Origin: Candidatus Gorgyraea atricola
Lineage (GTDB): Bacteria; Omnitrophota; Gorgyraeia; Gorgyraeales; Gorgyraeaceae
Assembly: GCA_030765235.1 (NCBI GenBank)
Contig: JAVCCW010000029.1
Location: forward strand, 12,939 to 76,938
Reading direction: 5' to 3'
DNA: 64,000 nt
Shown: piece by piece, positions 10,178-56,680 of the stretch
Position numbering within the stretch: the first letter of the stretch is position 1
Layout of the letters: the number at the start of each line of letters is the position of its first letter
Made by a program: the position numbers and the translations under genes
Notes under the pieces: model-generated
What the model saw: the letters and a program-made list of their open reading frames with translations, nothing else
Databases searched by the model: none
What the model was told of the DNA's origin: nothing

Positions 10178-10203
10178 GTAGGGCAGGTTTAAACCTGCCC
10201 TAC
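10178..10203. repeat. REP palindrome variant: GTAGGGCAGGTTTAAACCTGCCCTAC.
   Basis: Perfect 26-nt palindrome centred on GTTTAAAC. Confidence 0.75.
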
Positions 10204-10216
10204 ACAAGCACACATA

Positions 10217-10252
10217 ACTTTACATTTGAAGCAAGACCTTAAATGTAAAGTT
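10217..10252. repeat. Second hairpin: AACTTTACATTT ... AAATGTAAAGTT.
   Basis: 12-bp inverted repeat. The TTTACA/TGTAAA hairpin type recurs next to the REP copy at 11414-11434. Confidence 0.4.
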
Positions 10253-10278
10253 AAACATTGAAATAGAGGTGAATTGAC

Positions 10279-10671
10279 ATGAAGAAGTTAGTAGCATTAA
10301 CAATTAGCCTATTAGTAGTTGCGATGGCTATACCTTGTTTTGCTGGAAGCGCTCGTATCCTCAGTGATGAGGAGCTTGATATGGTTTCAGCTAAAGGTGT
10401 TGATCAGCCAGAGGTGATTTGGGAGATCCTCCCTATGGTCTCAGGCAACATGGAAGATTTCTTTGCTAATGGCGTACCGTATGACCTTGGTAGTGGTAAC
10501 ACAGTTTTTACCATGGGCGGGAACGCGCAGCAGAATCTACAAGCCTTAAGCAATATAACTGCGGTTAATAGCGCAGTCGGAGTCTTGATAAATATCACTG
10601 TTGTTAACGGCAATCTTACTGGGACAGTTAATCAGACCAACAACGCCCAGATAACCAACTTCGTATTCTAG
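10279..10671 (+). CDS. Small secreted single-repeat paralog of the giant repeat proteins (candidate minor/nucleator subunit).
   Basis: Signal peptide, N-terminal 'ILSDEELDMVSAKG' family motif, one repeat 'GGNAQQNLQALSNITAVNSAVGVLINIT', and a C-terminal aromatic residue. Confidence 0.7.
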   Translation: MKKLVALTISLLVVAMAIPCFAGSARILSDEELDMVSAKGVDQPEVIWEILPMVSGNMEDFFANGVPYDLGSGNTVFTMGGNAQQNLQALSNITAVNSAVGVLINITVVNGNLTGTVNQTNNAQITNFVF

Positions 10672-10696
10672 TAGGCCAGGTTTAAACCTGGCCTAC
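10671..10696. repeat. REP palindrome, consensus copy.
   Basis: GTAGGCCAGGTTTAAACCTGGCCTAC. Confidence 0.85.
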
Positions 10697-10716
10697 GTGG
10701 CACCAGGTGGAATATT

Positions 10717-11412
10717 ATGAGAAAGCATAACAGTATATTTATATTTGTCTTTATTTTAGCGATGTCTTTAGTAGCAGAGCCTTGCTTTGCTGCTAGTATT
10801 GGCATTGCAGGCAGGATAAACAAGAACGTAAAGAGTCTCAAAGAGATACGTCATCAGAATATTGAAGCTCAGAGTCTGGATTACTCCTGTGGTCCGGCGT
10901 CTCTAGCTACTCTTCTGAGCTATTACTTCGGCGATAAAGTCACCGAAGTAGACGTACTCGAGACGCTCCTTACGACCTGCGACATTGAAAAGGTAAAGGC
11001 AAAGAAGGGCTTTTCGCTCTTAGACCTGAAACGTTTTGCCCAGTCCCGCGGCTACGATGTAGTCGGCTATAAGATGGACCTGGAGTTTCTCGTTGAGCTC
11101 GATAAGCCAGTCTTGATCCCCGTGAGTATAAAGGACTACTCGCATTTTGTTATATTCCGGGGGCTAGAGGGCGATCGCGTGTTCATAGCTGACCCAGTAC
11201 TGGGCAACATGACCATGCGCTACGAGAAGTTCGAGAGGATCTGGGAAGGCGGCATAGGCCTGGTGCTTAATGGCAGAGACGATGAGAAACTAAAAGACTC
11301 TCCTTTAAGGATAAGCGGCCAAGAAGAGGCAGTTTTCGCGGACGCTACGACTGTACGAAGGCTATTCGGAGTAAATTCCCTAGGCACCATCTTCGCGGAT
11401 GGCGAGTTCTAA
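10717..11412 (+). CDS. Periplasmic peptidase C39-like domain protein (stand-alone, with a signal peptide).
   Basis: Signal peptide. Catalytic-Cys motif 'QSLDYSCGPASLATLLSYYFG' and a downstream His 'DYSHFVIF', as in double-glycine/C39 peptidase domains. Confidence 0.6.
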   Translation: MRKHNSIFIFVFILAMSLVAEPCFAASIGIAGRINKNVKSLKEIRHQNIEAQSLDYSCGPASLATLLSYYFGDKVTEVDVLETLLTTCDIEKVKAKKGFSLLDLKRFAQSRGYDVVGYKMDLEFLVELDKPVLIPVSIKDYSHFVIFRGLEGDRVFIADPVLGNMTMRYEKFERIWEGGIGLVLNGRDDEKLKDSPLRISGQEEAVFADATTVRRLFGVNSLGTIFADGEF

Positions 11413-11413
11413 A

Positions 11414-11459
11414 CTTTACACTTTAAGTGTAAAGTAGGCCAGGTTTAAACCTGGCCTAC
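11414..11459. repeat. TTTACA/TGTAAAG hairpin followed by a consensus REP.
   Basis: CTTTACACTTTAAGTGTAAAG then GTAGGCCAGGTTTAAACCTGGCCTAC. Confidence 0.8.
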
Positions 11460-11476
11460 AGTTACTGTTGTAATGG

Positions 11477-11496
11477 ATTCCCGCTTTCGCGGGAAT
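11477..11496. repeat. Palindrome ATTCCCGC-TTTC-GCGGGAAT (second repeat family core).
   Basis: Perfect 8-bp stem. An expanded version is at 17211-17266. Confidence 0.5.
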
Positions 11497-11550
11497 GACA
11501 AAGTTAACGGTTGACATATACCTATAATTTGTGGTATAAAGTCTATAGCC

Positions 11551-12465
11551 ATGAGACATTTGATGGTATTTTTTATTCTCTGGAGTAGTATGTTTCTTGC
11601 TGCACCCATCAGCATAGGCGCTAGCCTGGCTGAAGAGCAAAGGGAAATAGAGGGGGTAGTAGTAGGGTATTACTCTGCCAAGATCAGCTGGGCAACAGAT
11701 GAGCCAGCTACTTCACAGGTAGACTATGGCACATCAGGGTTTATATATGAACAGAGTTCCCCAGAGCGCAACAGCCTATTAATCAATCACGAGATAATCC
11801 TGAGCAACCTCAAGCCATCTACCCTATATCATTACAGGATAAGGAGTAAGGACGCTTTTGGCAATGAGGGTGTGAGCCAGGACCTTACATTTAAGACTCT
11901 GGATTTCTCCATAGCTGATAATAAAGCACCCACTATATCTAATATAAAGGTAGCCTCTCTTGCAGGCGTAAAAGAGCCTACCTATTTATCAGATGAGGAG
12001 GCAGCTGCTATTATAGGTGCAGGCCCGGCAGCGCCTAAAGGCAATTTCCCGGGTGGTAAGATAATTGCAGTAGCAAAGGCAAAACCAAAAGCAGAACCAA
12101 AGGCAGAGACAAGGCATATACAGGAGGGATCTGAGCCTGCAGCTTCAGGCATGATCCATTCAGCAGGTCAGCTTACTAAGCACGAAGCGCCAGTGGAAAA
12201 GACGCTTGTGCAAAAGGGCGGATTACTCATGCCTAAAGGCACATGGCAGTATGAGCCAAGTTTTGCCTATGCTCATACATCAGCAAATCGTATTGCCATA
12301 AGCGGATTTACAGTGCTGCCGGTTCTAATAATAGGAAGCATTTCCGTAGACGAAGTAAAAAGGGACATACTTATACAAACCAATACCTTTCGCTATGGGT
12401 TATTTAATAATTTCCAGGTAGAAGTAAAGGTCCCATCCCATATAGGTATCAATACGAGCGTATAA
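11551..12465 (+). CDS. Secreted FN3-like domain protein with an Ala/Pro/Lys-rich linker. It appears to be the N-terminal part of a frameshifted FN3 + outer-membrane beta-barrel gene.
   Basis: Signal peptide. 'KPSTLYHYRIRSKDAFGNEG' is FN3/purple-acid-phosphatase-N-like. Linker 'KAKPKAEPKAE'. C-terminal beta-strand-like segments run into the next ORF. Confidence 0.55.
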   Translation: MRHLMVFFILWSSMFLAAPISIGASLAEEQREIEGVVVGYYSAKISWATDEPATSQVDYGTSGFIYEQSSPERNSLLINHEIILSNLKPSTLYHYRIRSKDAFGNEGVSQDLTFKTLDFSIADNKAPTISNIKVASLAGVKEPTYLSDEEAAAIIGAGPAAPKGNFPGGKIIAVAKAKPKAEPKAETRHIQEGSEPAASGMIHSAGQLTKHEAPVEKTLVQKGGLLMPKGTWQYEPSFAYAHTSANRIAISGFTVLPVLIIGSISVDEVKRDILIQTNTFRYGLFNNFQVEVKVPSHIGINTSV

Positions 12466-13043
12466 CCACAGCAGACAATATAGAAACTACAGATAATCTG
12501 TCTGGACTTGGTGATATTGAGGCAGGATTATATAAGCAGATAGCGTTTGAGCATGGATGGGTACCAGATCTAATAGCTGGGGTCAGTGTAAAGTCAGACA
12601 GCGCCGATAAAAGCCCTTATGAGAATCCAGGAGATATTGGCTTAGGAACAGGGCACTGGGCAGTAAAAGGGAGCCTGGTGTGGGTAAAGTCAAGCGACCC
12701 GGCGATTGTCTTTGGTGGATTGAACTATACATGGAATATGGAAGATGATATTACAAATTACGGCAAGATAAATCCTGGAAATACTATTGGATATTCTCTT
12801 GGAATGACCTTTGCCTTGAATTACCAGGTAGCATTAAACCTGGGCGTGGACCAGAGCGTTACCGAAAAGATGAAAATAGATGACACTCCAGTAAATGGCT
12901 CATTTACTAATGTAGCCAGTTTTAAATACGGTTTTGTCTGGTCTGTAAACAAGAACTTTTCCTGTGATGTATCCGCAACACACGGCCTAACAGAAGACTC
13001 ACCTGACATGGTCCTGGAAGTCCGCTTCCCGTATACCTTCTAA
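12411..13043 (+). CDS. Outer-membrane beta-barrel C-terminal domain (MetA/transporter-like), ending in Phe. It continues the previous ORF in a different frame.
   Basis: Frame 0 is open from 12411, overlapping the 304-aa ORF, whose stop is at 12463-12465. Amphipathic alternating strands and a C-terminal 'RFPYTF'. Confidence 0.55.
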   Translation, partial: FPGRSKGPIPYRYQYERITTADNIETTDNLSGLGDIEAGLYKQIAFEHGWVPDLIAGVSVKSDSADKSPYENPGDIGLGTGHWAVKGSLVWVKSSDPAIVFGGLNYTWNMEDDITNYGKINPGNTIGYSLGMTFALNYQVALNLGVDQSVTEKMKIDDTPVNGSFTNVASFKYGFVWSVNKNFSCDVSATHGLTEDSPDMVLEVRFPYTF

Positions 13044-13051
13044 ACCCAACA

Positions 13052-13098
13052 AAAAAAGCCGAGGCTGGACCTCGGCCATTGGCCGAGGTCCAGCCTCG
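13052..13098. terminator. Large A-tract-flanked palindrome: two inverted copies of the GCCGAGG-CTGGA-CCTCGGC hairpin. Likely a bidirectional terminator.
   Basis: AAAAAAAGCCGAGGCTGGACCTCGGCCATTGGCCGAGGTCCAGCCTCG. The same hairpin recurs inside leuS at 62150-62180. Confidence 0.55.
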
Positions 13099-13136
13099 AA
13101 AGTTTAAACCCGGGCTACAGCTTTACACTCGTGCAA

Positions 13137-13162
13137 GTAGGCCAGGTTTAAACCTGGCCTAC
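13137..13162. repeat. REP palindrome, consensus copy. A half-copy, GTTTAAACCCGGGCTAC, lies at 13102-13118.
   Basis: GTAGGCCAGGTTTAAACCTGGCCTAC. Confidence 0.85.
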
Positions 13163-13209
13163 TTGTTTTGCTTTGTTTCGTTAAGTTTTAAAAAATATTA
13201 AAAAAGTAT

Positions 13210-17118: not shown

Positions 17119-17210
17119 TTTCTGATTTTTGCATTAGAGAACAAGGGGGATCGTCTTAGCATGAAGCGATTAAAAAAACATAAAATCAATTAAAATCGAA
17201 AGCATAATGG

Positions 17211-17266
17211 ATTCCCGCTTTCCCCGTACCATTCGCTTCGCTCAGGTACGGGGCACGCGCGGGAAT
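17211..17266. repeat. Composite palindrome: ATTCCCGC ... GCGGGAAT with an internal CCCCGTACC ... GGTACGGGG hairpin.
   Basis: Expanded version of the element at 11477-11496. Confidence 0.5.
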
Positions 17267-17279
17267 GACAGCAACAATA

Positions 17280-17305
17280 GTAGCCCAGGTTTAAACCTGG
17301 GCTAC
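17280..17305. repeat. REP palindrome variant: GTAGCCCAGGTTTAAACCTGGGCTAC.
   Basis: Perfect palindrome with compensatory changes in both arms. Confidence 0.8.
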
Positions 17306-33607: not shown

Positions 33608-34878
33608 AGAAAAAAAAGACTTTAAGTATATTTGGACTTGGATATGTAGGCGTGGTCACAGCAGCCTGTCTTGCTGAACAGGGCTATCACATCATAGGTG
33701 TCGATGTCAGCAGGAAAAAGCTGGACCTTATAAACAAAGGCAAGAGTCCTATTGTCGAGAAAGGCATTGATGACCTTGTATCCAAGACAGTCAAGAGAAA
33801 GAGGTTTTGCGTAACTGACTCTGCGATGTACGCGATATCAAATAGCGAAGTTTCAATAGTGTGCGTTGGTACACCTTCCATGGAAAACGGCGCAATAGAC
33901 CTTTCGCATCTTAAGAATGTCTCAAGAGAGATAGGGGCTAGCCTAAAGGGACTGCGAAGATACCATATTATAGTCATAAGAAGCACTATGATGCCGGGCA
34001 CAACAGAAGATGTCGTTATCCCTATTATAGAAAAGGCCTCGTCCAAAAAGGCGTTTAAGGATTTTGGCGTGCTGGTCAATCCGGAATTTATGAGAGAGGG
34101 TAATTCCATAGAGGATTTTTACGCACCGGCAAAGGTGATAATCGGGAGTAGAAAAAAGCAAGATGAAAAGGTGTTGCGTTCGATATATGGATTCATCAAG
34201 GCGCCTTTTATTTCAACAGATTTTAAGACAGCGGAATTTTCAAAATATTTGGACAATGTTTTCCACGGCCTAAAGATAGTATTTGCCAATGAGATAGGGG
34301 CTTTTTCCAAGAGATTTGGCCTGGATGGAAAAAAGGCAATGGAGATCCTGTGCATGGATAAAAAGTCCAATATATCAGGCATGTATCTTAAGCCCGGGTT
34401 TGCCTTTGGAGGATCATGTCTTCCAAAGGATCTAAAGGCAGTCCTGCATAAGACAAAGATAGGGGAATTGGATCTGCCGCTTCTGGGGTCTATCGTAAAG
34501 AGTAATGACCTGGCTATTAGAAGGGCATTCGAGGCGATTAAAAAGACAGGTAAGAAAAAGATTACAATGCTGGGCCTGAGCTTTAAACCAGGGACAGATG
34601 ATCTAAGAGAGAGTCAGATGGTCAGGCTGGCAGAGCTTTTGATCGGTAAGGGCTATAAGTTAAAGATATACGATAAGAATGTATCTCTCGCGGCATTGAT
34701 GGGCGCTAACAGGACTTACATAGAAAATGAGATACCGCATATAGCGTCACTTTTATGCGGATCCATTAATGAGGCAATAAAGACTTCAGAGGTGATCGTG
34801 GTAGGGCATTCCGCAAAGGAATTTAAGAAGGCTATAAAGAAAATAAAAAAGAACCAGGTTTTAATAGATCTAACCTAA
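33604..34878 (+). CDS. Nucleotide-sugar (UDP-glucose/UDP-ManNAc) 6-dehydrogenase.
   Basis: Rossmann 'IFGLGYVGVVTAACLA' and catalytic 'GFAFGGSCLPKD'. Confidence 0.85.
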   Translation: MKKKKTLSIFGLGYVGVVTAACLAEQGYHIIGVDVSRKKLDLINKGKSPIVEKGIDDLVSKTVKRKRFCVTDSAMYAISNSEVSIVCVGTPSMENGAIDLSHLKNVSREIGASLKGLRRYHIIVIRSTMMPGTTEDVVIPIIEKASSKKAFKDFGVLVNPEFMREGNSIEDFYAPAKVIIGSRKKQDEKVLRSIYGFIKAPFISTDFKTAEFSKYLDNVFHGLKIVFANEIGAFSKRFGLDGKKAMEILCMDKKSNISGMYLKPGFAFGGSCLPKDLKAVLHKTKIGELDLPLLGSIVKSNDLAIRRAFEAIKKTGKKKITMLGLSFKPGTDDLRESQMVRLAELLIGKGYKLKIYDKNVSLAALMGANRTYIENEIPHIASLLCGSINEAIKTSEVIVVGHSAKEFKKAIKKIKKNQVLIDLT

Positions 34879-34888
34879 AGGGCATATT

Positions 34889-41510: not shown

Positions 41511-41574
41511 TGTCATTGCGAGCCTCAATTTGTAGGCCAGGTTTAAACCTGGCCTACAAATTGGGCAATGACAG
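41511..41574. repeat. Nested composite palindrome: TGTCATTGC ... [consensus REP 41532-41557] ... GCAATGACA.
   Basis: Outer 9-bp inverted repeat of the second family encloses a perfect consensus REP with extended CAATTTG/CAAATTG arms. Confidence 0.8.
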
Positions 41575-42189: not shown

Positions 42190-42203
42190 CGTACCAAAGG
42201 TTA

Positions 42204-42255
42204 CCTGTCCAACTTCGTAGGTCGGATTTAAATCCGACCTACGAAGTTGGACAGG
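42204..42255. repeat. 52-nt perfect palindrome containing a REP variant: GTAGGTCGGATTTAAATCCGACCTAC.
   Basis: CCTGTCCAACTTCGTAGGTCGGATTT | AAATCCGACCTACGAAGTTGGACAGG. Confidence 0.8.
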
Positions 42256-42265
42256 TCTAAGCCCT

Positions 42266-46209: not shown

Positions 46210-48870
46210 ATGCGAATAAGTAGAAAGATCGGGATTAGTTTTTTTATAACCTTTCTTCTTGTTATAGTTCTTGGCGCACTTTCCATCTATAGTCTAAGGC
46301 ATACATATAGAGGCTTGAGTCAGGTCTTTGCAAGGGATCTGCCTGCATCCAGGGCTACCTACCAGATAGCCATTTCAATGGAAGGGCTTTTTGCAGAGCT
46401 CAATAATTTTCTAATAACAGGCAATGAGAATTTTAAGATAAGTTATGAAAAGGCCCACAAAGGGATAGAGCGGGATATATCAGCCCTTGAGAGATTTATA
46501 TCTGAAGAGGAAGAGACAGGGCTTTTTGACGAGGCAGAGGATTTAATAGCCCGGATAGACGGAGCTGCGCAGGACATATTTAAGAACAAAAAAGATATAG
46601 ACGCTCTATACAAGGATCTCAGGGCAATAGAGATCACATTCACAAAGAAACTGGACAGCCTTTTTGATTTTGAAGAAAAAAAGATGCAGGATGAGAAGGA
46701 TTTTTTGTTGGTACAGACGCAATATCTCCCTGCATCAGACCTAATAACAGAAGCGCGCTTGAGGTTTTCAAAAGCACTCTCAGACCTTAATGAAGAAGAT
46801 GTCCTGATCCTGGAAAAATCCTTAAGGGATTACAAGAATTACTACGGGTATTCTATTTCTGATAAAGAACGCAGCCTCGCGACTGAACTTATAGAATCCT
46901 CCACTGAAATCAAATCAATTGTCAGCTCGATCAATGATCTTAAGGCTAAGGCAGGCAGTCATGTGGAGTTACTCTTGGCTAAAGGCAAGGATTTTATGGA
47001 GGCGCTGGATAAGATAATCGCGCTTAAGAAAAGTGGCATTTCTTCAAAACTGGGAGTAGGCGCTGCGCTTACAGAGGATATACCAGCCATACATAATATT
47101 TCCAAGATAGAAAAGGATCTGGCAGAGTCGTGGAGGGCAAGCAGTAGATATATATTGACTGGTGATGAAACATATATAGCCCACTATCATCAGCTTAGAC
47201 AGAATATAGATAAGGCTCTTAAGGATTATGGCCGTCATGCGCGGCTTAGGGGTACAGAGAGATTTTTAGATGATATCCTGGAATCAGATAACGCTATTTT
47301 AAAGCTTATAGATTCTAACACGGCACTCTTTGACAAGAAACAGGATAGCCTTTCAGAGTTTTTGTCTATAGCTTCAGAGATCGAGAGCAAGATAGATGGG
47401 CTCTTGGCTGAAAAGGATTCTTTGATAAAAGAGGCAGAGGACCCGCAGGATATTTTAGAGAAACATGTGCCTGCGAGGTGGATGTTGATGCGTCTTAAGG
47501 ATGAGCTTGCGGGCGCGTCCAGGCTTATCATGGATTATTTAGATGAACAGGAATTAAAGTACAAGGACCAGTATTCAGAATCATATTTTGATATGAAAAA
47601 ATACATGAATAGATACAGGAATCTTTCTAAGGGGCGCGCTGATTCTGTGTTTATAAAAGAGATAGAGCTAAAGCTGGACAGCTTTAATAGCGCTGTCTTG
47701 GGTGTTATTGATAGTCACGATAGCATTATGAAGGAGCGCGGGTGGACCCTTATAGAATTACAGGATGATCTAAAGGATAGTTTAGCCAAGGCAGTGGAGG
47801 CAGAGATCAGTCAGATCGAGAAGAATAAAAAAGACCTTACGAATAGGATAAGGACTATCAACATCGTGATATTTATCATAATAGGCGTAGTGGCCTTTAT
47901 AGCAGTGTTTGTTATTTTCTACACCACGAGCTCCATAACAAATCCTATTCAGGCGCTTTACAGCGGCGCTGGCATCATAGGTAAGGGCAATCTGGACCAT
48001 CGATTGAACATAAAAACAGGTGATGAGATACAGGATCTTGCAGAAGGATTTAACACAATGGCAGGGGAGCTCAAGGAGCTCTATACAAATTTAGAGAACA
48101 AGGTAAAGGAGAGGACCGCTCAGCTGGGAGAGGCAAACAAGACCCTTGTTTTCAAGAAAGATGAATTAGAGAAGATCAATTCTAAGCTTAAAGATCTGGA
48201 CAGGATGAAGTCAGACTTTGTGGCAAACGTAGTGCATGAATTAAGGACGCCGCTTACCCTGATAACAGGCAATTTAGATAATATTGATAAAGGTTTTGCA
48301 GGGAAAGTCCAACCAAAACAACAGGAGATATTGGGTGACGTGTTCAGAGTCGTAAACAGGCTTGCGAGGCTTGTGAATAACCTTCTGGATCTATCCAAGA
48401 TCGAATCAGGCAAAATGTCACTCAAAAAGGAAACCCTGGACGTGGTAAAACTGGCAAAAGGAGTCCTTAAAGAATTTGATAGTGTAGCCAGGAAAAAGAA
48501 TGTGGACCTAAAACGAGAATTTCCTGATAAGGCCGTTAGCATCAAGGCAGACGAGGATAAATTGACACAGGTCTTCGTGAATCTTGTAGGGAATGCCCTG
48601 AAGTTCACTGACAAGGGAGGCGTTACTGTAAAGATCGCCGAATTGCAGGATGAGGTGCAGGTGGAGATCCAGGACACTGGCCCGGGCATGACAAAAGAAG
48701 AGTGCGAGAAGATTTTTGATAAATTCGTAAGAGTTGTCGCAGAGAAAAAAGAGGGCACAGGTCTTGGCCTTCCAATAGCAAAGGACATAGTAATGCTTCA
48801 CAAAGGCCGCATGAGAGTAGAAAGCGCTCCAGGTAAAGGTTCAACCTTCATCTTCAACCTACCAAAGTAA
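46210..48870 (+). CDS. Sensor histidine kinase: transmembrane segments, HAMP, coiled coil, HisKA and HATPase_c. No receiver domain and no adjacent response regulator.
   Basis: 'VANVVHELRTPLT' H-box, HAMP 'GDEIQDLAEGFNTMAGEL' and G-boxes 'DTGPGM...GTGLGL'. Confidence 0.85.
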   Translation: MRISRKIGISFFITFLLVIVLGALSIYSLRHTYRGLSQVFARDLPASRATYQIAISMEGLFAELNNFLITGNENFKISYEKAHKGIERDISALERFISEEEETGLFDEAEDLIARIDGAAQDIFKNKKDIDALYKDLRAIEITFTKKLDSLFDFEEKKMQDEKDFLLVQTQYLPASDLITEARLRFSKALSDLNEEDVLILEKSLRDYKNYYGYSISDKERSLATELIESSTEIKSIVSSINDLKAKAGSHVELLLAKGKDFMEALDKIIALKKSGISSKLGVGAALTEDIPAIHNISKIEKDLAESWRASSRYILTGDETYIAHYHQLRQNIDKALKDYGRHARLRGTERFLDDILESDNAILKLIDSNTALFDKKQDSLSEFLSIASEIESKIDGLLAEKDSLIKEAEDPQDILEKHVPARWMLMRLKDELAGASRLIMDYLDEQELKYKDQYSESYFDMKKYMNRYRNLSKGRADSVFIKEIELKLDSFNSAVLGVIDSHDSIMKERGWTLIELQDDLKDSLAKAVEAEISQIEKNKKDLTNRIRTINIVIFIIIGVVAFIAVFVIFYTTSSITNPIQALYSGAGIIGKGNLDHRLNIKTGDEIQDLAEGFNTMAGELKELYTNLENKVKERTAQLGEANKTLVFKKDELEKINSKLKDLDRMKSDFVANVVHELRTPLTLITGNLDNIDKGFAGKVQPKQQEILGDVFRVVNRLARLVNNLLDLSKIESGKMSLKKETLDVVKLAKGVLKEFDSVARKKNVDLKREFPDKAVSIKADEDKLTQVFVNLVGNALKFTDKGGVTVKIAELQDEVQVEIQDTGPGMTKEECEKIFDKFVRVVAEKKEGTGLGLPIAKDIVMLHKGRMRVESAPGKGSTFIFNLPK

Positions 48871-49979
48871 TGAAACAGAACCTTTTAATACTAAACGCGT
48901 CTTTATCAGGATCAAATAGATTTCTATTTGAATCCCTGAAGAAACGCGGCTGGAATCTTATTGTCAAAGATGTCCCGATTCCTGCAAGATATAAATTATG
49001 GAGCCTTTTAAAGACCTTTAATTTCAATAAGTCTAAATGGGGCAATGCGTATCGTGACTATTTAGGACGATATACAATAACACCCAGTGTTTTTCGCGAA
49101 AGGAGCAGGATCTGCGAAAGATATTTAGCCAGTCACAGTCATGAGTATGATCTGATTTTACAGATCGGGTCTTTATTCGCGCCCAGCCTTAAGTCAATAA
49201 ATAAAAAATACGTTATCTTCTCTGACTATACAACAAGGCTTGCTGAAAAGCATTTTCCTGAATGGGCGCCTTTGTCTTCCAAGCGCCAGAGCGATGAGTT
49301 GCTCGAATTACAGAAAGGCCTTTATCAAAGGGCCGCCATGGTCTTTACGACCAGCAATAATACGCGCAGATCCATGATCAGCGATTATGGCGTAAGAGAA
49401 GAAAGATCGATGACTGTGGGTTATGGATTGCCTTTTAGCGTATTTCCACACGCAGAGAAAAAGCAATACGATAGGAAGACCATACTTTTTATAGGCAATA
49501 ATTTTAAAAGAAAAGGGGGATTTACATTATTAGAGGCTTTTAAGAATGTAAGGAATAAAATAAAGGATGTACGCCTGATCATAATAGGTCCAAACCAGGT
49601 TTTGGCAGAAGTAGAAGGCGTTGAATGGAAAGGCCACATAAAGGATAGAGATATGATCGGGGATTTTCTTAATAAGTCTTCAATATTCGCTATGCCATCT
49701 TTCTGTGAACCATTTGGCCTGGTTTTTTTAGAGGCCATGTCCTACAGGCTTCCCTGCATAGGCTCTAGAGTAGATGCCATGCCAGAGATAGTAGAGGAGG
49801 GAAAGACAGGATTTTTGGTTAATGCGGGGGATGCTGATGATTTAGGGCGCAAGATAACACTTCTTTTGGAGGATAAAAAATTAATGGAGACTATGGGTGA
49901 AGCTGGAGCTAAAAGAGTGAAAGAGCGCTTTACATGGGATAAAGTCGCAGAAAAGATAATGGAGGCAAAATATGTCTAA
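48870..49979 (+). CDS. Glycosyltransferase family 4.
   Basis: 'FAMPSFCEPFGLVFLEAMSYRLPCIGSRVDAMPEIVEEGKTGFLV'. Confidence 0.8.
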   Translation: MKQNLLILNASLSGSNRFLFESLKKRGWNLIVKDVPIPARYKLWSLLKTFNFNKSKWGNAYRDYLGRYTITPSVFRERSRICERYLASHSHEYDLILQIGSLFAPSLKSINKKYVIFSDYTTRLAEKHFPEWAPLSSKRQSDELLELQKGLYQRAAMVFTTSNNTRRSMISDYGVREERSMTVGYGLPFSVFPHAEKKQYDRKTILFIGNNFKRKGGFTLLEAFKNVRNKIKDVRLIIIGPNQVLAEVEGVEWKGHIKDRDMIGDFLNKSSIFAMPSFCEPFGLVFLEAMSYRLPCIGSRVDAMPEIVEEGKTGFLVNAGDADDLGRKITLLLEDKKLMETMGEAGAKRVKERFTWDKVAEKIMEAKYV

Positions 49980-50372
49980 TGTAACCAAAGTCGAACTAAA
50001 ATTTCGAAAACTCCCCAATAACCCCGACATGTTCGAGTTCACAGTAAGCTCGCCATTACTAAGGTCCCAATTCTGCGTACCTAGGGCTATCGTCAATCAG
50101 CTGCGCGTAGATCTGGAAAAGGCATTGACGAGATAGGAAATTTTACCTATCTACTTGTAATCATTATAGATATATCAAAAATTTTACTTGCAATCTAGTA
50201 TATTTTGTGCTATACTTAATATGACCTTATAAATAGGGAAAAGGCTATTTTTTTGGCTAAATTATGTTAAAGTTTAATAAAGCTCTCAATTTAAAGATAA
50301 TCTTAATAACAGCGGGTTTTTTATTTATACTTAGCCCCCCCTCTATGCTATGCTTTTTTTAATGGCAAAACA

Positions 50373-51842
50373 TTGCGAATCCCACTTGAAGGCTATAGGC
50401 GCGCTGCAAATAAACTAAAACAGGAAAAAAGCAATAAAACATCTTCCTTCCAAAGAGAGAACTTCAAAGCTATATTGAGAGACGAAGGTTTGGTCGGGTT
50501 TGTCAGAGATGAATACTGTCTGAGGTTATTAAGGAGGTATGGAGATCAAAAAAGTTTTTACCTAACCGCAACATCGAAACTTATCAAAAGTACAGGTTTC
50601 GCAAGAGAATACTTTCTGAATACTTCGGATAAACTAGGTTTAAGAATAGTAGACTCTAAAAACGCTTCAACAAAGCGTATGTCCGTAAGATTAATAGATA
50701 AATGGCTTGCAGAAAAACGAGAAAATGAAAAGTTGATTCTAAAAGATTCTATAATTAATAAACCCAGGGAATGGGAAGCAGTAAATGAATACCTTAAAAA
50801 GTTTGTTTATCAATCTTTAGGCATAGCCAGAGCGAAAGATGAAAAAGTAAAATTAGAACTGATGAACCTGTGTTATCAGACACTTTATAAAGGAAATGAG
50901 AACTCTCACATAGGTCGACTTAATGAAATTATGGATGGAATAGGAAAAAGTAAAAATGTAACTAATTTAAGAATAAATAGTATTTTAAAAGACGAATTTA
51001 TAGCTTTTTTAAATTCCCACATAGAGGATATGAAAAAACAGGCGATTCTGACCGTAAAGAGAAAATCAGAAAAGATAACATTTAAAGGAAAGACAAGATT
51101 TTCGGGGCGTAATAATGTTTCGGAAAAAGAAGGCCCAAAAGAAGACCCATTGGTGATGGCCATACTGGAAGAAAAAGAAGCTCTTTTAGTGAAACAGCAA
51201 GCACCCGGACGCAAAGGTGAAAGCTTAACAAAAGGTGCAATAGTAGAACATCCTACTTTTGGCAGGGGGATTGTTAGTAAAATAGATTCCGCAGGACAGA
51301 AGATCACAGTTAAGTTTGATAAAGTGGGAGTCAAAAAACTTGCTATTCAACATGCGAATTTAAAGGTTGTTGTAGATAATGATGATATGTCCATTCCTAA
51401 GAATACTAATGGCCATTGGTCCATAATAAACAAAGAGTACCCGCCTCTATTGCATAATAATGGATTAATGAAAGACCAAATAGACTTAAAGGCCTTGCCA
51501 ACAGCCTCACTTGTATATATGACTGATATAGACAGTCAGGATGTTTATATTATAGAAGTTATTGATGATGGCCGCGTAAAATTATGGCTTAATTATAACC
51601 TTGGTTGTGCGGTTGGAAAAGCAGAATTGATTTCGACTAACTTTGGAAAAGGGGTATTGAATAAAGGAGAGAGGATAGCATTGCCGATACCATTGTCTAA
51701 TTTAGACGGAGATGGTGAAGTGTTGGATTTTTATGAAATTTCAGGCAGATGGAGCATCAATGAATTCTCATATTTTGATGTTTTGTATCCCGAGGATTCT
51801 AAGGTAATATCTGATAATATCGATCTAAGGTCTTCACTTTAA
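50373..51842 (+). CDS. Hypothetical protein with a UvrD-helicase-C-terminal-like ~50-aa motif. The start is uncertain (TTG, or internal Met near 50682). It lies in an AT-rich islet.
   Basis: 'GAIVEHPTFGRGIVSKIDSAGQKITVKFDKVGVKKLAIQHANLKVV' matches the V-H-x-x-FG-x-G-x-V ... V-x-F ... G-x-K pattern of UvrD/PcrA C-terminal (UvrD_C_2-like) domains. The rest is unrecognised. Confidence 0.4.
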   Translation: MRIPLEGYRRAANKLKQEKSNKTSSFQRENFKAILRDEGLVGFVRDEYCLRLLRRYGDQKSFYLTATSKLIKSTGFAREYFLNTSDKLGLRIVDSKNASTKRMSVRLIDKWLAEKRENEKLILKDSIINKPREWEAVNEYLKKFVYQSLGIARAKDEKVKLELMNLCYQTLYKGNENSHIGRLNEIMDGIGKSKNVTNLRINSILKDEFIAFLNSHIEDMKKQAILTVKRKSEKITFKGKTRFSGRNNVSEKEGPKEDPLVMAILEEKEALLVKQQAPGRKGESLTKGAIVEHPTFGRGIVSKIDSAGQKITVKFDKVGVKKLAIQHANLKVVVDNDDMSIPKNTNGHWSIINKEYPPLLHNNGLMKDQIDLKALPTASLVYMTDIDSQDVYIIEVIDDGRVKLWLNYNLGCAVGKAELISTNFGKGVLNKGERIALPIPLSNLDGDGEVLDFYEISGRWSINEFSYFDVLYPEDSKVISDNIDLRSSL

Positions 51843-51858
51843 TATATAATGTAGAGTA

Positions 51859-51902
51859 GCAGTAGCAGTAGGCCAGGTTTAAACCTGGCCTACTGCTACT
51901 GC
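51859..51902. repeat. 44-nt perfect palindrome; extended REP copy.
   Basis: GCAGTAGCAGTAGGCCAGGTTTAAACCTGGCCTACTGCTACTGC. Confidence 0.85.
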
Positions 51903-52007
51903 TTAGTGTTGACCTCTGTCCCCACGCCCCCAAAGTTCTATACAAATTTTTCACAAAATTTGAAACTTTGCCCTATTTAGGCTATAATTAGGGCAAAGGG
52001 AGATGCC

Positions 52008-53744
52008 ATGGAGATGGATTCTACTCAGAATACAAAAAAGAAGAAGATAATAGCTGCAGTGATTTTATTGGCAATTTTTATAGGTGCCGGCTATTTTTTA
52101 TTTACTAGCGGGACAGCAGTTAAGCTATACAAACATGCTAAGTTTATAATGCAGAAGAAATTATATGCGACTGAGGAAATCCTAGAATACGACTACAAAG
52201 ATAAGGTAGCACTGCATTTTAGAGATGGAAGCACAATGATAGGGGGGCTGGCAGGTATAACAAAAGACGCGTATCATATTGATTGGAAAGGTGAGGAGAT
52301 CATTGTCTATCTTGATATGGTAGATCGTATAACCCCTCCTAAGGAGGCCCTGAAAGAAAAAACCTTGCTTTCAGACGAAGAGATCTCAGAACATTGGCCT
52401 TTTAAGAATGATGTTGTAATAAGACTGAATAACAGGAGTATCCTGGACGCCAAGATCGATCGAGTAGATCCAGATAAACTCTATTTATCGTATGCTACAG
52501 AAGGAGGGGGAAGCATTGAACAGGATATTGAGCGCTCAGAGATCCAATATCTTATTTTTAAGCCAGTAGATAATGAAGAGAGCAGGAATACAGAGGATTC
52601 ACTTAAAAGGCTTTTTCCAGAGATGGAGTTTTACAAAGATGGGAATTTTACTATTGTAACTGATTCATATATTACATGGGTTAAAAGATGCAGGAAGGTT
52701 TTAAGAAAGACATATACAGATATCTATTTAGAGTTTTTTGATATCTTTAAAGACAGGGAGCCGAAACTTCAGAATTTTGTAGTAATATTTGATGACTATG
52801 TTGATTTTGTTGAATATGCCGTGTCAGATGGCGTGCCAGGATGGGCAGCCGCAGGTTATTTTACGCCAGAGGACAAGGTGCTTTACCTTTTTAATGTATT
52901 AGGAGACAGATTTGCAGAGCTGTTGTTTGAAGGTATAGTCGGGGAAAGCGGAAGGCAGATTAATCAGATAGTGGATGCGATCGAGACCCGCGTAGATAAG
53001 AGATATCATATCTATGTCGAAGGCCGAGCAAAGAAGATTAAAAACAAGTTCTGGAAAGTATACAACTATTACGAGAATATGTTCATAAATATGACGATGT
53101 CTACATTGAGGCATGAATTTACTCACGAACTCTTTCATAACTGGGGCCTGCAAAACATAACTCTTTCAAGGTTTAAAGGGCCCGACAAAGAGCTTATAAA
53201 AAGGAAAAAGGCATTTCTGGAGGAAAAGGATTACAAAAAAAAGGCAAAGGTCTTAAAGAAGCTGCTTGAGCAGAAGAGCGAGGATGTGCCGCTTGATATG
53301 AAGGCTGCAAATTCATGGCTTTCAGAGGGCATGGCTACATATTGCGAGCCAGATGAACTCGGCGCCCAGAACGATAGGAGGTTATTTATCTACCAGGAGA
53401 TGACCAGAAAAGGCCCTGTATACCCATTGGAATTTTTAACAGCTTATAAAATGGGAAGTTTCCCAGGGGTCTATTCAAGGGCCATGCGGGACATGTATGC
53501 CCAAAGCTGGGCATTTGTCTCTTTTTTGATGAAGAGATATCCGAAAGAATTTATGGAATACCAAAATAGGTTAGCAGGTGAAACTGCTAAATACTCTGAA
53601 GATATAAATTGGCTGCTAGAGGCCTTAGGCAAAGATTCAAAGACAATAGAGAGAGAATTTGCAGAATACATGGCTGGCTTTGAAGAATTAGAAGATCCCT
53701 TCCTGATCCGTTTTGATGTAATCAACAACGCCTTTAAGTATTGA
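52008..53744 (+). CDS. Membrane-anchored hypothetical protein with HExxH (putative zinc metallopeptidase-like).
   Basis: N-terminal transmembrane segment and 'LRHEFTHELFHNWG'. Confidence 0.45.
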   Translation: MEMDSTQNTKKKKIIAAVILLAIFIGAGYFLFTSGTAVKLYKHAKFIMQKKLYATEEILEYDYKDKVALHFRDGSTMIGGLAGITKDAYHIDWKGEEIIVYLDMVDRITPPKEALKEKTLLSDEEISEHWPFKNDVVIRLNNRSILDAKIDRVDPDKLYLSYATEGGGSIEQDIERSEIQYLIFKPVDNEESRNTEDSLKRLFPEMEFYKDGNFTIVTDSYITWVKRCRKVLRKTYTDIYLEFFDIFKDREPKLQNFVVIFDDYVDFVEYAVSDGVPGWAAAGYFTPEDKVLYLFNVLGDRFAELLFEGIVGESGRQINQIVDAIETRVDKRYHIYVEGRAKKIKNKFWKVYNYYENMFINMTMSTLRHEFTHELFHNWGLQNITLSRFKGPDKELIKRKKAFLEEKDYKKKAKVLKKLLEQKSEDVPLDMKAANSWLSEGMATYCEPDELGAQNDRRLFIYQEMTRKGPVYPLEFLTAYKMGSFPGVYSRAMRDMYAQSWAFVSFLMKRYPKEFMEYQNRLAGETAKYSEDINWLLEALGKDSKTIEREFAEYMAGFEELEDPFLIRFDVINNAFKY

Positions 53745-54115
53745 ATTTTGGAGCATCTTGAGTCACCTACAATTGTGAACAGACCCAGAAGGAAGTCAGG
53801 TTATATAAACAGATGGGCTACCTAAGTCTAGGAAAGAAGTTATGCATAATAAAGACATAAACCCAGGAAAAGAACCAAGCAATTATCAATATGATGCCTA
53901 TGATTTTTAAGAATTTATTCATCACTTTAAATTATACCTTAGGGAAAGAGGGTTTGCAAGGGGGAGTGCGAGTAAATAATCCTCCCCTGTATTTTTAAGG
54001 ATTTTTTGATAAGGAAAAGTTAAAGGTAAAAATACGTTCGTTTGTTTAGTGGGTTATTTTATCCTATTTGACTTTTGAGGTGTACAGGGTATACTTTTGG
54101 GAATAAGGAGAGGTT

Positions 54116-54439
54116 ATGGATAAGAAGGATAAAACTTCAGTTAATATATTGAGTATTATTTTCTTAGTGCTTGATACCCTCATTTTAATTGCCACTCCTT
54201 TAATACAAGGGAAAATGTATGGTTTATACCAAGAATTTGGGATAAAGTTACCTTCATTTATGCACATAATTTTCTTTCATAAGTATATTTTTATTATCAT
54301 AGCCCTGATTTTAATAGCAAAAGAGTTTGCAAAAAATAAAATGAATTGCATTATTAACATAGTAACGTTTATTATATTAGGTTTTTTATTAATGGGACCT
54401 ATTCTCATTGGTTTTTTATCACCACTTTCTAACTTCTGA
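54116..54439 (+). CDS. Small polytopic membrane protein, hypothetical.
   Basis: Three predicted transmembrane helices. AT-rich context. Confidence 0.3.
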   Translation: MDKKDKTSVNILSIIFLVLDTLILIATPLIQGKMYGLYQEFGIKLPSFMHIIFFHKYIFIIIALILIAKEFAKNKMNCIINIVTFIILGFLLMGPILIGFLSPLSNF

Positions 54440-54473
54440 AAAGGAATTTTAAGAACAAGTAGCCCTAAAGTAG

Positions 54474-54507
54474 TAGGCCAGTAGTAGGCCAGGTTTAAAC
54501 CTGGCAC
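54474..54507. repeat. Degenerate REP (duplicated left arm, diverged right arm) at the 3' flank of the RAYT gene.
   Basis: GTAGGCCAGTAGTAGGCCAGGTTTAAACCTGGCACC. Confidence 0.6.
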
Positions 54508-54529
54508 CATGCATGTTACATACTACAAA

Positions 54530-55015
54530 TTACGGTTCTATCTTATCAATTTCTGGTATTCCTGAATAATTATTGCCAAAGTAGTAGTTATAACTTGAAA
54601 AAGGATACTCATCTGGCGTTGTTGTCAATTTTGCACGGACAGGATTATTATGGATGTATTCTATTTTCTGAAGCAGAACATCATGATTCCTGAGGCCTGT
54701 ATCATAGAATCTGTCTTGCCAGACTTTTCCTTGCGTTGAGAGCATTTTATTATATTTTCTTGCGAAATTACCTTTAATCATCTTCATGATATATGAAATA
54801 TTATAGATGCCATAGGTTTGAATTATGAGATGTAAATGGTCGGGCATTAAGCAGTAGGCAAATAGTTTATAGTCCAGAACCAGTTTAAAGAATTCGATTG
54901 TGGCCAAGAGGATTTTGCAGTTCCGTTCGTCACGGAAGATAGGCTTTCTATTGAAAGTTGCAGTAGTGATAAGATATGGATATCCCTCTTCGAAATATCT
55001 TTTGAGTCTGCCCAT
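54530..55015 (-). CDS. REP-associated tyrosine transposase (RAYT; IS200/IS605-like Y1 HUH transposase).
   Basis: HUH motif 'LMPDHLHLII', catalytic Tyr region 'YIHNNPVRAKL', about 160 aa, flanked on both sides by REP copies. Confidence 0.8.
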   Translation of the reverse strand: MGRLKRYFEEGYPYLITTATFNRKPIFRDERNCKILLATIEFFKLVLDYKLFAYCLMPDHLHLIIQTYGIYNISYIMKMIKGNFARKYNKMLSTQGKVWQDRFYDTGLRNHDVLLQKIEYIHNNPVRAKLTTTPDEYPFSSYNYYFGNNYSGIPEIDKIEP

Positions 55016-55030
55016 GAATTCCTTTCTGTA

Positions 55031-55088
55031 GTAGGCCGGGTTTAAACCCGGCCTACTGGATCGTAGGCCAGGTTTAAACCTGGCCTAC
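55031..55088. repeat. Two tandem REP copies (GTAGGCCGGGTTTAAACCCGGCCTAC and consensus) at the 5' flank of the RAYT gene.
   Basis: Copies at 55031-55056 and 55063-55088. Confidence 0.85.
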
Positions 55089-55105
55089 CGGTTAGATTAC
55101 CAGGA

Positions 55106-56641
55106 TTACCAACTGGTCTTGTCTAGGCTTCTTAGTTGTATGCTTTCAGAGACGTGGTTGGGTTCTATGTTGGATTTTCCCTCCAAGTCTGCAATTGTCC
55201 TGGAAATCTTCAGGATCTTGTCGTAGCATCTGGCGCTGAAGCCCATTTCTGTTATTGCTTGCTTTAGGAGACCCTGTGCAGCCTCGTCTAATCTGCAGTA
55301 TTTTCTGATAAGCTTATGAGGCATCTGGGAGTTTGCGAATATGCCATGGTCTTTGAGTCTAGTCAGCTGGATTTTTCTTGCAGCTTCAACCCTTGCCTTT
55401 ATTACTTCTGATTTTTCCCCGCAGGCCTCGCCTGAAAGCTCTTTGTATCTGACAGGAGGGACCTCTATGTGGATGTCGATCCTGTCTAAGAGCGGCCCTG
55501 AGATCCTGGACATGTATTTCTGTATTCTTGGAGATGTGCAAAGACATTCTTTCTTTGGATCAGTTAAAAAACCACAAGGGCACGGGTTCATCGAGGCCAC
55601 AAGAGTAAACTTGGACGGGAATCTCAAGGTAGCGCTTACCCTGGAAATAGTTACGTACCCATCTTCAAGAGGCTGCCTCAATGCCTCCAGGACATTCCTG
55701 TGAAATTCAGGCAGCTCGTCCATAAAAAGCACACCGTTATGCGCTAGGCTCACCTCGCCTGGCTTTGGCGTGCTTCCACCGCCAACAAGCGATGAGTCAG
55801 AAGAGGTGTGATGTGGCGTTCTAAAGGGCCTTGTGTTTATTATTGCCTTTTTTGTTGGGACAAGGCCGCATATGCTGTAAATCTTTGTAGTCTCAATAGC
55901 TTCTTCAAGTGTCATATCAGGCATGATCGTGGGCAGCCTCTTAGCGAGCATTGTCTTTCCGCTGCCAGGAGGACCTATCATGATGATATTATGACCTCCT
56001 GCTGCAGCGATCTCCATGGCCCTTTTTGCATAGACCTGGCCTTTTACGTCTGAGAAATCAGTTTCATAGTCGCGTTTTTTATTTAGATGGATCTGCGCAG
56101 TATAAGGTAAGGGTGAGAGCGAGTTTATGTCGTTTATAAAATCACACACGCTATTGAGCCTGTCTACAGGATAGACCTCCAGGCCTTCTACTACGCTGGC
56201 CTCATATGCATTTTCTTCTGGCAGGATCAGTTTTTTACGCGAGTTCTTTAAAGATATTGCAATAGGCAGGACCCCTTTTACAGGCCTTATGCTGCCATTA
56301 AGGGCAAGCTCTCCCAGGAATACAAAGTCCTTTATGTTCTTATAATCTATCTGCTCAGATGCAACAAGTATCCCTATTGCCATAGGAAGGTCAAAGCAAG
56401 GACCTTCTTTCTTTATGTCGCATGGCGCAAGGTTTACTGTTATCTTTTTAGAAGGATACTTGAACTGGCTGTTTTTTATAGCTGAGCGCACCCTGTCCCT
56501 GGACTCTCGTATAGCAGTATCAGGGAGACCTACAATAGCCACTTGCGGCAGCCCGCTCGCTATATCTACCTCGATCTCGATCTCTCTTGCTTCAATGCCA
56601 ATAGTGGTTGCTGAAAATACCTTTGATAACATATAGACCAC
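55106..56641 (-). CDS. comM: YifB/ComM family Mg-chelatase-like AAA+ ATPase.
   Basis: N-terminal Lon-like domain 'IGIEAREIEIEVDIASGLPQVAIVGLPDTAIRESRDRV', Walker A 'GPPGSGKT' and C-terminal Mg_chelatase_C. Confidence 0.85.
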   Translation of the reverse strand: MVYMLSKVFSATTIGIEAREIEIEVDIASGLPQVAIVGLPDTAIRESRDRVRSAIKNSQFKYPSKKITVNLAPCDIKKEGPCFDLPMAIGILVASEQIDYKNIKDFVFLGELALNGSIRPVKGVLPIAISLKNSRKKLILPEENAYEASVVEGLEVYPVDRLNSVCDFINDINSLSPLPYTAQIHLNKKRDYETDFSDVKGQVYAKRAMEIAAAGGHNIIMIGPPGSGKTMLAKRLPTIMPDMTLEEAIETTKIYSICGLVPTKKAIINTRPFRTPHHTSSDSSLVGGGSTPKPGEVSLAHNGVLFMDELPEFHRNVLEALRQPLEDGYVTISRVSATLRFPSKFTLVASMNPCPCGFLTDPKKECLCTSPRIQKYMSRISGPLLDRIDIHIEVPPVRYKELSGEACGEKSEVIKARVEAARKIQLTRLKDHGIFANSQMPHKLIRKYCRLDEAAQGLLKQAITEMGFSARCYDKILKISRTIADLEGKSNIEPNHVSESIQLRSLDKTSW

Positions 56642-56654
56642 CTCCCTTTTAATA

Positions 56655-56680
56655 GTAGCCCAGGTTTAAATCTGGGCTAC
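56655..56680. repeat. REP variant: GTAGCCCAGGTTTAAATCTGGGCTAC.
   Basis: Near-perfect palindrome. The centre is TTTAAAT. Confidence 0.7.

Follow-up and report, generated by a model that had tools for sequence, protein, structure and literature searches.

The 64,000-nt stretch of Candidatus Gorgyraea atricola DNA considered here (the window; GenBank assembly GCA_030765235.1, contig JAVCCW010000029.1, positions 12,939 to 76,938) contains a family of repetitive extragenic palindromes (REPs) and a gene for a REP-associated tyrosine transposase (RAYT). Judging by sequence comparison, the two probably (with a likelihood of about 85%) constitute a single system of this Omnitrophota bacterium, in which the RAYT is the cognate enzyme of the REP family (a REPtron). 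Such systems have been characterized in depth in Proteobacteria, but the manner of REP spread is still unsettled. No paper linking Omnitrophota to REPs or RAYTs was found in the literature searched and, as far as that literature goes, the system is new for this group.

REP copies were sought in the window as matches to the 26-mer GTAGGCCAGGTTTAAACCTGGCCTAC with no more than three mismatches, and 100 dinucleotide-preserving shuffles served as a control. Ten matches were obtained, six of them exact (positions 10178, 10671, 11434, 13137, 17280, 41532, 51868, 55031, 55063 and 56655), against none in the shuffles. A looser scan adds three: a full copy at 42217-42242, in which all six mismatches are compensated, a truncated one (54484-54509) and a right half that ends at 13118. 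The total is thus 13 REPs (six exact, four near-exact, one diverged full, one truncated and one half), where chance expects none. The sequence-only reading had counted at least 13 copies of a perfect 26-nt palindrome, and this count holds, as do most of its coordinates; three starts are corrected, from 42213 to 42217, from 54474 to 54484 and, for the half copy, from 13102 to 13106-13118. Other half-site matches at 29482 and 29515 lie inside coding sequence and are due to chance, and that at 1905, which overlaps a promoter-like site, can at most be a decayed half copy. The sequence GTTTAAAC occurs 11 times in the window (0.9 expected). As DNA, the REP is predicted to form a hairpin with an 11-bp stem and a TTAA loop (-11.7 kcal/mol, z = -5.9). 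In being 26 nt long, palindromic, extragenic and multi-copy, it agrees with the short (20-40 nt) GTAG-REPs. An Rfam scan detected only two tRNAs and no family at the REPs.

The RAYT (TnpA-REP) of 161 aa is encoded on the minus strand at 54530..55015. NCBIfam model NF047646 (REP_Tyr_transpos) is matched with 123 bits (cut-off 80) over residues 4-140 of 161; the IS200 model NF033573 gives 30.2 bits, which is under its cut-off of 55, and the Pfam domain is Y1_Tnp. The best solved relative is E. coli TnpA-REP (PDB 4ER8, E = 3.7e-7), in the alignment with which PDHLHLI falls on PEHMHCI and IEYIHNNPV on VDYIYINPV. The HUH motif (H60-L61-H62) and the catalytic tyrosine (Y120) are therefore both present by alignment, and they are conserved across 11 RAYT homologues, with the tyrosine in a YxxxNP context. 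With the curated model passed and the IS200 model failed, the earlier assignment of this ORF (open reading frame) to the REP-associated HUH-Y1 transposases is confirmed. So is the description of its flanks as one degenerate and two tandem REP copies: the truncated copy (54484) lies 20 nt past the stop codon and two full copies (55031 and 55063) lie 15 and 47 nt upstream of the start codon. The RAYT gene is, however, the second of a pair and not the first gene of the minus-strand cluster, as had been supposed; the first is comM. A tblastn search with the RAYT against the 45 REP-bearing loci revealed no second copy, and no plasmid match was obtained for the RAYT region.

The word "cognate" finds its strongest support in the change of the REP stem with the RAYT across lineages. 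A metagenome scan with the RAYT protein returned 80 loci; related genome and metagenome loci fetched for comparison with the window are designated below by L-numbers (e.g., L048, L126). RAYT identity to the window protein is 100% in L046, 91% in L047/L048, 66% in L049, 64% in L053, 61% in L054, 59% in L050/L051 and 56% in L052. The homologues in L047-L054 are flanked by perfect 26-nt palindromes of the form GTAG-N7-TTAA-N7-CTAC, in which N7 differs with the protein (L049 CCCGGGC, L050 GGCACCC, L051 CGCACCC, L053 CCGGGGT, L054 GGCACGT). The palindromes are found on both sides of the gene in L047-L053 and on the downstream side only in L054. Co-evolution of RAYT and REP was reported for other pairs (PMC8266576), with which the window family agrees.

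The pattern GTAG-N7-TTAA-N7-CTAC was then searched without a pairing requirement in 0.79 Mb (the window and the fetched loci). Seven of seven Watson-Crick pairs in N7 are formed in 79 of 81 matches, which comprise 19 distinct sequences and a single G.T. Among these 19, all seven variable stem pairs covary (52 double-change cells, 99% of cells paired), the covariation score is reached by none of 500 shuffles, and pairing collapses when the partner is slid. GTAG, CTAC and the central TTAA are invariant across the family, and 160 of 168 paired stems with a 5' GTAG end in CTAC. Fixed ends and loop with a free stem would be expected if the protein reads tag and loop and needs only pairing of the stem. 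The near absence of G.T pairs (one cell) argues for a constraint at the DNA level rather than the RNA level. Since GTAG is mirrored by CTAC, the REP is its own reverse complement and presents the same hairpin on both strands. Singly tagged REPs are limited to the RAYT-proximal copy at 54484, which is kept in L048, and to L055/L056 (41% identity), where GTAG and a hairpin stand upstream of the RAYT and a hairpin and CTAC downstream of it, that is, singly tagged and inverted. By this comparison, the doubly tagged GTAG...CTAC form looks derived from a singly tagged REP.

Compensatory changes in both halves of the stem had previously been taken to mean that selection acts on structure. Pairing and covariation are clear, but selection is not their only possible reading. 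The stem variants represent subfamilies that have propagated (GGCAGG is also found in L013 and L034, CCCAGG twice in the window), and hairpin-templated copying would change both halves in one step, so that such changes are no proof of selection.

Further support comes from the presence and absence of copies at orthologous sites. The exact 26-mer was found in 45 stretches from approximately 16 species-level genomes, nearly all labelled Candidatus Omnitrophota (18 stretches belong to one metagenome-assembled genome); the palindrome is common in these related genomes, and rarity beyond the window would have told against the family. The 56655 copy is missing in the orthologous L048 spacer (a 32-nt gap). 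A block of about 73 nt around 41532 is missing from L126, L127 and L128 (spacers of 12, 17 and 58 nt), and the 54-nt element at 42217 is missing from the same three loci (orthologous spacers of 9-17 nt). The 10671, 11434, 13137 and 17280 copies are missing among L129-L131 and L128: the 10671 site is empty in L130 (18-nt spacer) and L131 (7 nt), the 11434 copy is not in the spacers of L129, L130 and L131, which retain the downstream promoter, and the 17280 copy is not in those of L128 and L130. L128, L133 and L134 represent one species, which has no REP in 20 kb and thus provides no further pair of filled and empty sites. These presence/absence patterns identify the REPs as insertions. At the 10178 site, L131 (4-29) holds a REP with another stem, GTAGGGGAGCCTTAAGGCTCCCCTAC (GGGAGCC vs GGCAGG), and L130 an unrelated GC hairpin; the two stem classes in one spacer could reflect co-evolution or conversion in place, or more than one insertion at this point. 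A relative of the 42217 element with similar arms and three compensated differences lies at L126 3272-3326, and the orthologous window site (34878-34889) is empty. Elements of this type at different sites in the window and L126 point to a separate long-armed mobile subfamily, not to a mutated member of the common family, as the 42217 copy had been considered.

Every window copy is situated between ORFs and none inside coding sequence. In seven of eight plus-strand spacers the REP lies 0-29 nt past the upstream stop codon, in agreement with the initial impression that copies mostly follow plus-strand stops; the exception is 17280 (162 nt). Several copies stand 17-24 nt ahead of the next start codon within apparent operons. 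Single REPs dominate, and close pairs are limited to 55031/55063 (6-nt spacer) and 13106/13137.

Many copies carry copy-specific palindromic arms, which extend the hairpin on both sides of the core. The first copy (10174..10207, core 10178-10203) is the variant GTAGGGCAGGTTTAAACCTGCCCTAC, which recurs in L013 and L034, with 4-nt arms TTGT/ACAA. The exact copy at 10671..10696 shares its first G with the stop codon TAG that ends ORF 10279-10671; supply of TAG stop codons by GTAG-REP ends is already on record in other families (PMC3733652). The exact copy at 11434..11459 is armless and set in the right arm of a AACTTTACAC-type palindrome. The half REP (13100..13118) consists of AAACCCGGGCTAC (13106-13118), the right half (TTTAAACCCGGGCTAC) of a CCCGGG-type REP, fused at its centre to unrelated DNA. 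Next to it is an exact copy (13134..13165, core 13137-13162) with 3-nt arms CAA/TTG, the sole one followed by a T-rich tail. The variant GTAGCCCAGG..CCTGGGCTAC at 17280..17305 stands 17 nt ahead of the start codon of ORF 17323. The exact copy at 41526..41563 (core 41532-41557, 6-nt arms CAATTT/AAATTG) is nested in a GTCATTGC..GCAATGAC hairpin element at 41512-41572. The long-armed subfamily is represented by a 54-nt perfect palindrome at 42203..42256, with core GTAGGTCGGATTTAAATCCGACCTAC (42217-42242) and 14-nt arms. The exact copy at 51858..51903 (core 51868-51893) has 10-nt arms AGCAGTAGCA/TGCTACTGCT, and GTAGCA is repeated upstream of it.

The remaining copies surround the RAYT and its neighbour. 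The RAYT-proximal copy (54484..54509; 22 of 26 bases, GTAGGCCAGGTTTAAACCTGGCACCA on the plus strand) has its tag on one strand and in the RAYT sense reads as a hairpin followed by CTAC. The variant GTAGGCCGGG..CCCGGCCTAC (55030..55057, core 55031-55056) precedes the RAYT start codon by 15 nt. The exact copy at 55063..55088, separated by 6 nt from the preceding copy and located 17 nt downstream of the comM stop codon, is kept in L047 and L048. The CCCAGG variant (56650..56685, core 56655-56680) with one G.T mismatch and 5-nt arms TAATA/TATTA is located between the divergent comM and outer membrane protein genes.

For arm statistics, 73 non-redundant copies (window and fetched loci) were used, and their flanks were re-paired in 2000 permutations. 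Arms of at least 3 nt (range 3-14 nt) are present in 39 of 73 copies; the permutation mean is 3.6 and the maximum 11. Direct repeats indicative of target-site duplication are not enriched beyond self-complementary tetranucleotides (AGCT, AATT). The empty orthologous spacers of long-armed window copies measure 9-17 nt and contain no palindrome. For the copy at L039 2775 (12-nt arms), the empty ortholog L009, likewise free of a palindrome, shares only the outer TTAC of the 5' arm, which is thus ancestral, and the 3' arm lies within the inserted block. In L047 (2767), L053 (4497) and L033, the 3' arm exactly complements the copy's own CACAAnn 5' of the REP (CACAATT/AATTGTG, CACAATA/TATTGTG and CACAACA/TGTTGTG, respectively), and CACAAnn in L047 and L053 is part of a motif conserved beside RAYT genes. 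The 55031 copy is kept in L047 and L048, there with the 7-nt arms CACAATT/AATTGTG; in the window REP corresponding to L047 2767, CACAAnn is lost and the arm is 1 nt. At these four loci one arm appears to be templated from the other, and we infer from the sequences compared that the hairpin serves to copy one flank onto the opposite one.

Such copying could take either of two routes. The 3' end of the hairpin could copy the 5' flank by fold-back priming from a RAYT nick; extension of a RAYT-made 3'-OH by host polymerase was proposed for amplification of BIMEs (bacterial interspersed mosaic elements) (PMC3333891). Alternatively, replication template switching could perform this reaction, as quasipalindrome template switching is capable of creating or perfecting hairpins and of introducing paired changes in one event (PMC8794818, PMC3820800). 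Either mechanism weakens the step from paired changes to selection. The same copying could also have given rise to the doubly tagged palindrome from an ancestral REP with a single tag.

As to dispersal, the RAYT would bind the REP as a single-stranded DNA hairpin and read GTAG and the TTAA loop, by analogy with E. coli, Stenotrophomonas and Marinomonas. It would then nick nearby, probably at C|T or C|A, and rejoin the strands, whereby the REP would be moved or copied; on this analogy we infer that the RAYT accounts for the spread of the REPs. The two bases before GTAG are CT in 33, TA in 30 and AA in 23 of 146 flanks, and E. coli TnpA-REP cleaves at C|T (PMC3333891). A further GTAG lies within 14 nt of an end in 16 of 146 flanks (3.5 expected), usually on one side, and a doubled CTGTAG occurs in four copies from three genomes. 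A bolder version, in which the RAYT acts on either strand, the copies write inverted duplicates of their flanks and the double tag is itself so created (a strand-symmetric, self-extending REP), is offered tentatively and is rather doubtful. If true, a domesticated HUH transposase system would by its own activity produce long perfect palindromes between genes.

Several points weigh against a RAYT-driven system of this kind. An E. coli REP mutated to a perfect palindrome is neither bound nor cleaved (PMC3333891), and E. coli processes the REP only, not its complement (PMC8266576); recognition in the window family must therefore differ from that of the best-studied enzyme. In the hairpin, GTAG is paired and would have to open before it could be read as a single strand. 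As for the arms, 21 of 73 copies are without any, those of the 42217 subfamily travel with the core, so that not all arms are local, and the mechanism is drawn from statistics and a few filled-versus-empty comparisons at 70-90% identity.

One alternative concerns the arms alone. They could arise from REP insertion at the exact dyad of pre-existing target palindromes or hairpins. REPs are indeed often nested in palindromic elements (41512-41572 in GTCATTGC; L011 and L041 in AACTTTACAC), REP families inside palindromes were described by Di Nocera et al. (PMC3733652), and the unoccupied 56655 site is an AT-rich near-palindrome, TATATATA. The palindrome-free empty sites of long-armed copies, L039 2775 included, speak for copying instead. 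Insertion into a loop should moreover leave unpaired bases, whereas complementarity begins at the first flanking base, and the 11434 REP is in the arm, not at the dyad, of the neighbouring palindrome. This origin of the arms is considered unlikely. Mobilization in trans by a DDE transposase encoded elsewhere would make the repeats miniature inverted-repeat elements; they are short, intergenic and polymorphic in presence/absence, as such elements are. There are no terminal inverted repeats apart from the single hairpin, GTAG is a tag typical of RAYT substrates, and RAYT and REP co-vary. The direct-repeat test, which gave only AGCT- and AATT-like tetranucleotides and no target-site duplication, led to the rejection of this candidate, to which hardly any credence is left.

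Two other explanations dissociate the palindromes from the transposase. They could be operators for a dimeric protein binding double-stranded DNA, or restriction-modification sites, neither mobile nor transposase-related. The perfect dyad with zero spacer and almost no G.T resembles a symmetric double-stranded binding site, GTTTAAAC, CCWGG and GGCC all occur within the 26-mer, the 17280 and 42217 copies stand just ahead of start codons, and covariation alone cannot tell a hairpin from a dimer-site constraint. However, the copies are insertions relative to orthologous spacers, most follow stop codons and are not at promoters, and differences in the stem follow the flanking RAYT, not the genes next to the REP. 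Restriction-like subsites are not shared by the whole family (L050 GGCACCC, L049 CCCGGGC), and the repeats flank RAYT genes in every lineage examined, so that such a function is highly improbable. It is also very unlikely that the REPs are selected intrinsic terminators or mRNA-stabilizing 3' hairpins beside an unrelated, decayed IS200 remnant. The stable hairpin, the position within 29 nt of the stop codon in seven of eight plus-strand spacers and the T-rich tail of the 13137 copy would suit such a role, and REPs elsewhere in bacteria affect mRNA decay and termination (PMC3733652). Yet a usable T tract on the transcribed strand is present at 13137 alone, and several copies in apparent operons lie 17-24 nt before the next start; a general role as intrinsic terminators was judged unlikely and rejected on these grounds. 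Independent selection would not yield 26 identical bases in about 16 species, and the RAYT gene is intact, passes the RAYT model and has conserved catalytic residues. A secondary, co-opted RNA role of REPs may well exist, and they might influence mRNA 3' ends or the coupling of neighbouring genes; this would not explain the origin of the copies.

The gene upstream of the RAYT, a comM/yifB-like Mg-chelatase-family ATPase (55106..56641, minus strand; Pfam Mg_chelatase, ChlI, Mg_chelatase_C), provides context and is outside the element. comM-homologous DNA is found upstream of the RAYT in the window, L047/L048, L051 and L053, and a comM-like C-terminal coding end was read by eye in L050 and L051. 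With comM at the same place across relatives, the RAYT holds a fixed chromosomal position while its REP changes. In L047 (2680-3420) and L048 (3870-4615) the last ~45 nt of comM and a REP are duplicated downstream of the RAYT, so that the RAYT cassette is bracketed by direct repeats. In L048, the counterpart of the 54484 copy is followed by a 69-nt block comprising the duplicate of the comM 3' end and most of a full REP. The window is without this block, and a duplicated GTAGTAGGCCA remaining at about 54473-54483 looks like a deletion scar relative to L048. Also relative to L048, an 11-nt tandem duplication TGGTAATCC/TGGTAATCT is located at the comM stop codon (55089-55110, minus strand). The block 48870-54480 has no counterpart in syntenic L048 and may be a lineage-specific insertion beside the RAYT. 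ORF 50373-51842 (489 aa) has no homologue besides itself among 5.8 billion proteins.

In L049-L054, AAAGTTATCCACAA and 1-3 nt directly precede each RAYT-flanking REP on its 5' side (in the RAYT sense), on both sides of the gene and in direct orientation. The block also stands before two dispersed REPs of different stem classes in L026 (5715, 7159). In all DNA compared, TTA[TC]CCACA is directly 5' of a REP in 15 of 27 occurrences. The motif AAAGTTATCCACAA was looked for at the window REPs, and none was found there. It contains TTATCCACA, by sequence a perfect DnaA-box consensus, and a role in DnaA binding was considered for it; the conserved block is longer than the box.

Other palindromic repeats are observed in the vicinity of REPs. 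The family (CT)AACTTTACA(C/T)TT...AAGTGTAAAGTT(AG) is often 5-15 nt from REPs and sometimes encloses them (window 10216-10252, 11412-11433 and 13119-13128; L011, L015, L019, L041 and L127 11171-11209); a related unit in L039, GTAGGTCACACTTTAGTGTGAC, is a singly GTAG-tagged hairpin. Hairpins GTCATTGCGAG...CGAAGCAATC with variable centres are found at window positions 6978-7040 and 41512-41572 (with a REP in the centre) and in L003, L007, L012, L021 and L035. Elements ATGGATTCCCGCTTTCGCGGGAATGACA, which translate as MDSRFRGND, lie beside REPs in inserted blocks missing from relatives (window 11470-11500 and ~17190-17272; L012, L013, L019, L041, L044). Adjoining the half REP, a GC-rich palindrome with 19-nt arms (13060-13098) is preceded by an A run and followed by a T run on the opposite strand; it looks like a minus-strand terminator. 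In the species that is REP-free over 20 kb, two CATGTTCAAGGCT(A/T)AGCCTTGAACATG palindromes overlap the end of a SurA_N-like gene (L128/L133/L134 9909-9983). A 36-nt perfect palindrome TTACCCGTTTTGCCCGTT/AACGGGCAAAACGGGTAA (61008-61043) is just upstream of two tRNA genes (61069-61153 and 61280-61350). ORFs 11551-12465 (Pur_ac_phosph_N) and 12678-13043 (Phenol_MetA_deg) correspond to one gene of 463-507 aa in L129-L131; by this comparison, the window gene is probably split or frameshifted.

REPs of E. coli start with GTAGGCC, and the window REP has the same start. The E. coli REP/BIME system with TnpA-REP (RAYT group 2; 4ER8; PMC3333891, PMC3479197) shares with the window a HUH/Y1 protein of about 160 aa having its motifs in the same places, GTAG 5' of a GC-rich hairpin, and REPs that flank the gene and are intergenic, mostly after stop codons. 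In E. coli the palindrome is imperfect, its AA/GC bulge is essential and GTAG is unpaired; one strand is the substrate, and the REPs are arranged in BIME pairs (PMC3333891). In the window family, singletons dominate, the REP is self-complementary, and the bulge that defines group 2 is lacking, 79 of 81 pattern matches being perfectly paired. GTAG-REPs are defined in the published classification by an unpaired tag at one end (PMC3733652); here GTAG is invariant but paired with the 3' CTAC and occurs on both strands. Two rules of the E. coli model are thus broken, namely that an imperfect palindrome is needed and that one strand is the substrate.

Group 3 REPtrons (Stenotrophomonas maltophilia SMAG, Marinomonas MWYL1; PMC8266576; GTAG families, PMC3733652) have perfect short stems and small recognition loops. 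The GTAG tag, protein/REP co-evolution and the terminal TAG as a stop codon are also common to them and the window family. They differ in an unpaired GTAG at one end, which provides strand discrimination, in stems of 5-8 bp and in loops of 3-4 nt that are not self-complementary, and copy-specific palindromic arms are not reported for them. At least eight co-varying RAYT/REP pairs of the present family define the bases that the protein must read (GTAG, CTAC and TTAA fixed, stem free), and an invariant 26-nt core shared by many species of the little-studied Omnitrophota makes a clean natural experiment.

The Pseudomonas REPIN-RAYT system (PMC3116915, PMC5581495) likewise has a fixed-position, apparently vertically inherited RAYT, repeats persisting across species, and gain and loss at orthologous sites. 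A REPIN consists of two inverted REPs and a spacer (~100 nt), whereas the window unit is a single 26-nt hairpin tagged at both ends; it has the symmetry of a REPIN without the two internal hairpins and is not classified as one. The IS200/IS605 elements (IS608, ISDra2) also combine a Y1 HUH fold with single-stranded hairpins, a 5' tetranucleotide and no target duplication. The RAYT genes of L049-L054, flanked by direct copies of a 15-nt motif and a hairpin, recall the left and right ends of these elements. Unlike IS200/IS605, the window system gives 30.2 bits with the IS200 model (cut-off 55), its hairpins are dispersed without the gene, and there is no tnpB.

Quasipalindrome template-switch mutation (PMC8794818, PMC3820800) is a replication error that fits both the arms and the perfect pairing; it is not described as a systematic property of any REP family. 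The arms caution against taking paired hairpin changes as proof of selection. As a sequence footprint of insertion or maintenance chemistry, they could separate nick-primed fold-back from template switching. For annotation it matters that these REPs supply stop codons, abut ribosome-binding sites and break assemblies. Compared with the systems listed above, the Omnitrophota family stands out in two ways: its REP is fully strand-symmetric, with a double tag that is paired, and its palindromes have grown systematically into the unique DNA beside them.

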